The position numbers were made by a program, and so were the translations under genes. Under the pieces are notes generated by a model. It was not told the DNA's origin, searched no databases, and saw only the letters and a list, made by a program, of their open reading frames with translations. Positions 2,507-2,714 of a stretch of DNA of 40,473 bases are shown here, in pieces. The stretch's first letter is position 1. Every line of letters begins with the position of its first letter. This DNA is from Escherichia phage BUCT788: sequence record PV540240.1; one strand, given 5' to 3'.

Positions 2507-2668
2507 CTAAGAAAACTTAAAGCTCGCTACCATCGGTTCATGTACAAATGGTGGAGTGATGAAGCAACCTGCCTGTCCAACATTCTGGGAGACCAGAGGT
2601 TCGACTCTAAGGCATGGAAGAAAGCTAACCGGAAGTTTATGTATCACTTCTTGCGTACAGACTTCTAG
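2507..2668 (+). CDS. Possible small protein between gene 4 and gene 5 (start uncertain, TTG candidate after AAGGAGGA)
   Basis: 65-aa frame 2471..2668 opens with GTG inside gene 4; a strong AAGGAGGA RBS at 2491..2498 precedes an in-frame TTG at 2507. No homology recognised. Confidence 0.25.
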
Positions 2669-2714
2669 GTCTAGACTCAAGGTCATTCACATCGAGTGGC
2701 CTTTATGATTAGAC
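2668..2714 (+). promoter_or_regulatory. Conserved hairpin element, candidate RNase III processing site (position of T7 R4.7)
   Basis: AGACTCAAGGTCAT...GTGGCCTTTATGATTAGAC; near-identical copies at 26550 and 36048, related copies in the early region. Confidence 0.4.

Follow-up and report, generated by a model that had tools for sequence, protein, structure and literature searches.

Intergenic hairpin elements in the K1F-like Escherichia phage BUCT788, relatives of the RNase III processing sites of phages T7 and T3

Background

The processing of T7-group mRNAs by RNase III is textbook knowledge dating from the 1970s-80s; the gp0.7 kinase of T7 is known as a stimulator of this enzyme. The polycistronic mRNAs of T7 are processed at ten RNase III sites, and the phage is able to grow on RNase III-deficient hosts (PMC6938266). 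The R1.1 site lies between genes 1.0 and 1.1; its 60-nt RNA has an asymmetric internal loop (4 nt/5 nt) and is cleaved both in vivo and in vitro (PMC6121014). Internal loops restrict cleavage to a single bond, leaving protective 3' hairpins on the processed RNA (PMC1540722; PMC3867540).

The genome of Escherichia phage BUCT788 (PV540240.1) contains six intergenic hairpin elements that are very probably host RNase III processing signals of the polycistronic phage mRNAs and belong to the family of the T7 and T3 sites. As orthologous T7-group RNase III sites in a K1F-like phage, they represent already known biology and carry little weight as a discovery; their practical value lies in annotation.

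Genome features

The window, that is, the whole 40,473-nt stretch of DNA analyzed here, was identified from its ORF order as the circularly permuted genome of a K1F-like phage (Kayfunavirus, T7 group, Studiervirinae). A 4-kb piece showed 91-97% identity to K1F, CLB_P1, pO2, and other Kayfunavirus phages. The large ORFs are all on the + strand, as are eleven phage-type promoters (TAAACTATCACTATAGGRA). The window opens with the gene 4/gene 5 region; the genome-end region is found near 29.6-30.5 kb, followed by the early genes (~31-33 kb) and the RNA polymerase gene (gene 1; 33042-35723). No gp0.7-like kinase was seen among the early ORFs scanned.

The DNA polymerase gene (gene 5) is broken after ORF 2732-4771 by a segment within 4772-5500. 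This interruption carries a 131-aa ORF (4833-5228), the position of which matches gene 5.3 of K1F, annotated as a 'homing endonuclease', and the polymerase CDS is given as a two-piece join in the K1F records. A search for group I introns gave no Rfam match at the gathering score in the whole window.

Six canonical elements

A sequence-only reading of the window had listed six copies of a hairpin element at the positions of T7 RNase III sites, and this number was borne out. The motif AGGTCAT...GTGGCCT occurred five times on the + strand (0.03 expected by chance), and the relaxed form AGGTCRY...RYGGCCT six times, always on the + strand, against 0.13 by chance. Additionally, a covariance model was built from the six window copies aligned with seven T7 sites, together with a consensus structure. 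With filters off, this model returned only six strong matches, all on the + strand (56-64 bits, E 1e-10 to 1e-11), and the next-best match in the window scored 13.8 bits. The six copies listed by that reading constitute the whole canonical class; three non-canonical candidates, given further below, were not in its list. The repeated element is ~57 nt long, and every copy is intergenic and lies on the transcribed strand. The copies are as follows, with free energies in kcal/mol and with cuts predicted by homology:

2668..2715, + strand: hairpin equivalent to R4.7 (dG -19.4, z -3.4; model match 2664-2720, 63.2 bits); its first base is the final stop-codon base of ORF 2471-2668, and the ATG of gene 5 (DNA polymerase) follows at 2732; predicted single cut U2706/G2707.
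26547..26598, + strand: hairpin equivalent to R18.5 (dG -23.2, z -4.8; model match 26544-26602, 64.1 bits); located after the gene 18 stop codon (26545-26547) and followed by the HNH endonuclease ORF 26610-27011 and then gene 18.5; predicted cut U26588/G26589.
30958..31007, + strand: hairpin equivalent to R0.3, early type (CAGGUCG...GCGGCCUG; dG -21.8, z -5.3; model match 30955-31011, 59.2 bits); situated between the left genome end, with its expected host-promoter region, and the ATG of the first early gene (31026); predicted cut U30997/G30998.
31825..31874, + strand: early-type hairpin (dG -21.0, z -4.0; model match 31823-31877, 61.0 bits); located between early ORFs (stop codon 31824-31826; next ATG 31898, opening a 115-aa ORF); predicted cut U31863/G31864.
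32262..32316, + strand: early-type hairpin, R0.5-like (dG -20.1, z -3.5; model match 32261-32318, 56.2 bits); located between ORF 31898-32245 and further small early ORFs (ATG 32336); predicted cut A32304/G32305.
36044..36097, + strand: hairpin equivalent to R1.1 (dG -20.2, z -3.4; model match 36042-36100, 60.3 bits); overlaps the transcript start of a phi1.1-type promoter (promoter 36028-36048, inferred +1 G36046) and lies upstream of genes 1.1 (ATG 36122) and 1.2; predicted cut U36086/G36087.

Over the full element, pairwise identity among the six copies ranged from 52 to 74%. The trio at 2668, 26550, and 36048, which had been called near-identical, proved to be 66-73% identical at this length. 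The copies have the arms TAGACTCAAGGTCAT and GTGGCCTTYATGRTTA in common, and their apical parts vary with compensating changes. The hexamer TGATTA, reported to trail the stem, was present in three copies, the rest having TGGTTA, TGATAG, or AGATTA, and one of the coordinates, 31808, was off by ~17 nt (the element starts at 31825). Rfam 15 contained no family matching any part of the window at the gathering score, and no match was obtained even at E <= 1 in 30900-32400, a region holding three of the elements.

RNA fold, strand, and covariation

Each copy forms a lower stem of 7-9 bp and an upper stem of 9-12 bp, with 9 + 9 pairs in the consensus. The consensus internal loop is asymmetric, having 4 nt (ACUC) on the 5' side and 5 nt (YAUGA) on the 3' side, in agreement with the loop described for T7 R1.1 RNA (PMC6121014). 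In the early copies, the 5' loop is ACUA or ACGA; single minimum-energy folds sometimes gain 1-3 weak pairs within the loop. The base of the upper stem is conserved as AGGUC.../...GGCCU. The pairing of AGGUCA with UGGCCU through G-U pairs, as proposed earlier, holds with one U.G wobble, a second wobble coming after it. Certain base pairs in the proximal and distal boxes of a substrate are inhibitory to RNase III (antideterminants; PMC1540722); the proximal upper stem of the window copies is identical to that of the cleaved T7 sites.

The folds of the six copies reached -19.4 to -23.2 kcal/mol (z -3.4 to -5.3). The reverse complements gave -10.8 to -17.6 kcal/mol with non-significant z values of -0.5 to -1.8, and they fold poorly because the conserved U.G wobbles turn into A-C mismatches. 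Therefore, the selected object is the sense-strand RNA. A reading of the elements as DNA palindromes was rejected on account of the same strand asymmetry.

A pattern scan of IMG/VR yielded 120 stretches, mostly on ~40 kb contigs, and the covariation set consisted of 140 model-found copies, 109 of them distinct, among the 80 loci listed (IMG/VR T7-like contigs). Standard pairs filled 93.1% of the cells in the 109 copies, compared with 26-50% for slid partners and 77.6% for shuffles. Two-sided (compensatory) changes were found in 15 of the 18 pairs, and double-change cells numbered 298, against 32-83 for slid partners and a shuffle mean of 97; the observed covariation values were reached by none of 500 shuffles. 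Because the model was used to fit the alignment, and the 5' loop and most of the upper-stem base were set by the collection pattern, the lower stem and the apical pairs carry most of the unbiased covariation. The 3' loop at the predicted scissile bond, between AU and GA, was 88-98% conserved, though it stands outside the collection pattern. Covariation among R18.5 orthologues only gave two double-change pairs, the close Kayfunaviruses varying too little to be informative. Folding and covariation had been suggested as a check on the sequence-only reading, and its outcome, significant folds and paired columns with compensatory changes, favored that reading.

Intergenic, G+C-containing hairpins followed by a moderately U-rich stretch (CCUUUAUGAUUA) might also be taken for terminators or pause sites of the host or phage RNA polymerase. 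However, a terminator scan of 29500-37000, where four of the elements lie, returned no terminator-like site against 4.7 expected from shuffles. No U-run follows the stems, the tails being UUAUGAUUA, CAUGAUUA, GACUGAUA, and similar; the downstream genes need transcription through each element; and the terminators of T3 and T7 (TE, Tphi) are annotated as features separate from these sites. We rejected intrinsic terminators, as no G+C-rich stem with a U-run was found in 29500-37000, and we regard the probability of any terminating or pausing role as close to nil.

An inverted repeat (TAGCGACGTAAG/CTAACGTCGCTA) at 12169-12206 overlaps the end of the major capsid gene (11136-12179), the same location as that of the Tphi terminator in T7 and T3.

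Comparison with T7, T3, K1F, and other substrates

Copies of the motif were found in T7 at 1442, 3115, 5862, 6422, and 13868. We take the T7 cuts to lie at 1468 (R0.5), 3138 (R1), 5887 (R1.1), 6448 (R1.3), and 13892 (R4.7), and likewise at 890 (R0.3) and 36856 (R18.5), the T7 RNase III cut coordinates reportedly being those of Dunn & Studier 1983. The distance from the end of the motif to the cut is then 4 nt in all seven sites, and this constant offset supports the assumed coordinates. RNase III sites are not listed in the T7 GenBank/RefSeq feature tables examined, which do list promoters and terminators.

The window copies align column by column with T7 R0.3, R0.5, R1, R1.1, R1.3, R4.7, and R18.5. 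T7 R6.5, which had been held out of training, was recovered by the model at 36 bits. In T3 (AJ318471), the model recovered all eight canonical 'RNase III recognition site' features (R0.3, R0.5, R1, R1.1, R1.3, R4.7, R6.5, and R18.5) at 33-65 bits; there were no other T3 matches at E <= 1 on the + strand and one weak match on the reverse strand.

The elements of the window and those of T7 share the consensus (G/A)ACUCAAGGUC...GGCCUUUAUGAUU, the succession of lower stem, 4/5-nt internal loop, and upper stem, comparable fold energies, the strand, and the intergenic siting. They also share the places of R0.3, R1.1 (which overlaps the phi1.1 promoter start), and R18.5. In contrast, T7 has eight canonical copies including R6.5 and the window has six, with no site before gene 1 or before gene 1.3; the apical and lower stems of the window differ in sequence, with compensating changes, and an HNH gene comes after the R18.5 element. 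With T3, the window shares an R4.7 site immediately 5' of gene 5, and the promoter-element overlap at 36044..36097 resembles those of phi1.1A/R1.1 in T7 and phi1.1/R1.1 in T3. Unlike the window, T3 has R1 and R1.3 sites as well as the gene 0.7 kinase.

K1F, the type species of Kayfunavirus, likewise has six canonical copies, of which those before gene 5, after gene 18, and after the phi1.1 promoter are orthologous to the copies in the window, and its gene 1 is preceded by the same phage promoter. The early-region copies of K1F differ in that they border other cassettes: upstream of gene 0.3, two copies enclose an additional cassette, and the window cassette composed of an element and the 115-aa ORF is absent from K1F.

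To our knowledge, no sequence relationship is to be expected between the phage elements and other bacterial RNase III substrates, such as pre-rRNA stems and the rncO leader. Both kinds of RNA offer about two turns of dsRNA to the same enzyme, but the phage family is a dispersed, sequence-conserved repeat. In other bacterial substrates, internal loops also direct single-strand cuts (PMC3867540, PMC1540722).

An R18.5-type site was present at 22 of 23 loci of close gp18 relatives (91-100% identity). Among distant gp18 relatives (12 IMG/VR loci, 51-56% identity), no model match at E <= 0.01 was found within 400 nt of gene 18. Therefore, a related gene 18 does not always come with the canonical element, and the family seems to be limited to part of the T7 group.

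Site assignments and the gap before gene 1

The names of T7 sites given earlier to the six copies stood for R0.3, R1.1, R18.5, and R4.7 (the last in its T3 position), and for the R0.5-like inner sites; the assignment of an R1 site failed. The 97-nt gap before gene 1 is free of elements, and its RNA does not fold significantly (z -0.2 to -0.6). Between the end of the last early element and gene 1 there are 724 nt and three ORFs; with gene 1 starting only at 33042, the hairpin at 32262..32316 cannot be counted as an R1 site. Thus, the two inner early elements are assigned as R0.5-like sites. The equivalent of R1.3 is absent because genes 1.2 and 1.3 overlap, and, gene 4.7 being absent, that of R4.7 immediately precedes gene 5.

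In the place of the R1 site of T7 and T3, the window has a phage-type promoter (32949-32970), 73 nt ahead of the RNA polymerase gene. This promoter, also conserved in K1F and in six further Kayfunaviruses, suggests that the phage polymerase transcribes its own gene. The RNA following it starts with GGACUCAAGGUCU, which equals the 5' half of the element consensus. This start was rejected as an R1 site, as it has no 3' partner and folds no better than shuffles.

Proposed mechanism of processing

The sequence-only reading had taken the elements for mRNA processing or stability signals, and their homology to the T7 and T3 RNase III sites in sequence, structure, and position supports this view. By this homology, we infer that cleavage takes place here, at which bond, and with what stabilizing and translational effects. 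The RNA of each element would form two stacked helices, a lower stem of free sequence and an upper stem with conserved base, which together present about two turns of dsRNA and would be bound by E. coli RNase III. The internal loop would confine cutting to one phosphodiester on the 3' side, placed by comparison with T7 at 4 nt past ...GGCCU, that is, after positions 2706, 26588, 30997, 31863, 32304, and 36086. The upstream mRNA would then end in the upper hairpin, a potential barrier to 3'-5' exonucleases, and the downstream mRNA would begin with a defined leader of 21-35 nt bearing the Shine-Dalgarno sequence. Given that T7 grows without RNase III, the effect is probably a quantitative tuning of mRNA stability and translation, and the benefit of the sites may be modest.

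The same hairpins could instead be structured mRNA elements that RNase III does not cleave, serving as 3' stabilizers, in translational coupling or uncoupling, or as binding sites of phage proteins. [quoted passage not shown] However, the homologous T7 elements are classic substrates cleaved in vivo and in vitro (PMC6121014; PMC6938266), the nucleotides at the scissile bond are conserved, and the host is E. coli, the same source of enzyme as for T7. We consider elements of this non-cleaved kind extremely unlikely, and we retain RNase III processing as the very probable function of the six copies.

Non-canonical candidate sites

Three further regions of the window are probably RNase III sites of the non-canonical kind, and are put forward as candidates only:

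735..761, + strand: R3.8-like candidate, an 11-bp hairpin with a 5-nt loop (dG -18.2, z -3.0), formed by the first transcript nucleotides from a weaker promoter copy at 721-739 and located between a gene 3.7-like ORF and gene 4.
7151..7254, + strand: R6.5-like candidate, a long imperfect inverted repeat around the phi6.5 promoter (z -3.2) with a perfect 11-bp core (ATAGTCATATC/GATATGACTAT).
15401..15450, + strand: R13-like candidate, a perfect 12-bp inverted repeat (AAGGGCCTATAG/CTATAGGCCCTT) around the phi13 promoter (z -3.4).

Their counterparts in T3, namely R3.8, R6.5, and R13, overlap or enclose phage promoters in the same manner. The annotated R3.8 of T3 (AJ318471) has the build and place seen at 735..761, the R13 stem-loop of T3 likewise encloses phi13, and R6.5 of both T7 and T3 encloses the phi6.5 promoter. 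The R6.5- and R13-like hairpins of the window match the T3 sites in architecture, not in sequence, and the covariance model detected no similarity of 7151..7254 to the canonical element. K1F is identical or nearly identical across the three regions, and identical in 15401..15450.

Elements at cassette junctions

In the early regions of Kayfunaviruses, the gain and loss of gene cassettes coincides exactly with the elements. A 133-aa HNH endonuclease gene (ORF 26610-27011), which K1F does not have, lies between the R18.5 element and gene 18.5 of the window, and the long alignment with K1F breaks off at 26600 and picks up again at 27007, past this insert. In the early region, the R0.3 element of the window aligns to two K1F elements, 706-769 and 1029-1086, which border a K1F-only cassette, and the K1F element at 1765-1822 also enters the comparison of early-region cassettes with K1F. 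Early regions of six more Kayfunaviruses have three elements each and the same edge pattern. The 115-aa ORF always has an element on either side. The unit of element and 115-aa ORF (31823-32260 in the window) is missing from K1F, GA2A, SD6, and U8, and upstream of gene 0.3 these four phages have another small cassette, bordered by an element on each side, that the window does not have.

In one reading, the elements are first of all dispersed DNA repeats, at which cassettes are swapped by recombination between co-infecting T7-like phages, and the RNA hairpin is secondary. Homology breakpoints between the window and its relatives coincide with element edges, the HNH insertion directly follows the R18.5 element, and the element at 32261-32318 corresponds to a homology island of 76 nt in K1F. 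In the window, Penshu1, HAO1-1, and SH3, the second early element is followed by the 115-aa ORF and the third element; in GA2A, SD6, U8, and K1F, a single element combines the 5' flank of the second with the body of the third. Breakpoints fell at element-holding gaps in 46 of 53 subject comparisons and at other gaps in 28 of 107, a difference confounded by the sampling of loci around the elements and by distant subjects, which break at every gene end. On account of this confounding, the enrichment, though suggestive, was not used as evidence of mechanism. Conserved islands between variable genes or cassettes would simply yield breakpoints at their edges without recombination, and the strand asymmetry, the conserved G.U wobbles, and the compensatory changes point to selection on an RNA fold rather than on DNA identity. 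Moreover, recombination at the elements is compatible with RNase III processing as a side effect of it. We therefore regard it as very unlikely that recombination is the primary role of the elements, for which RNase III processing remains the preferred explanation.

A secondary role is tentatively conceivable: the elements, being processing sites, could also be junctions for the gain, loss, and exchange of early cassettes of Kayfunaviruses by recombination, although we hold this to be rather doubtful. The exchanged unit would be 'element + Shine-Dalgarno + ORF', with crossovers falling either within the 5' arm that the elements share (CTGAGTGNTARAC) or at their 3' edge, and the elements would act as promoters and terminators do for the 'morons' of lambdoid phages. 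Possible examples are the 31823-32260 cassette and the HNH gene right after the R18.5 element. If general, such a pattern would inform on the diversification of T7-like early regions. A literature search for T7-like genome papers turned up no specific description of such sites or of recombination at them.

Implications for annotation

RNase III sites were unmarked in all Kayfunavirus records examined, including both records of K1F. A covariance model such as the one used here would annotate the elements cleanly and help to correct gene starts. In three Kayfunavirus records, annotated CDSs start within the hairpins: 2050-2406 in Penshu1 (element 2046-2103), 1940-2080 in GA2A (element 1942-1999), and 1824-2198 in U8 (element 1820-1877). 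These starts are probably mis-set, or the ORFs spurious.
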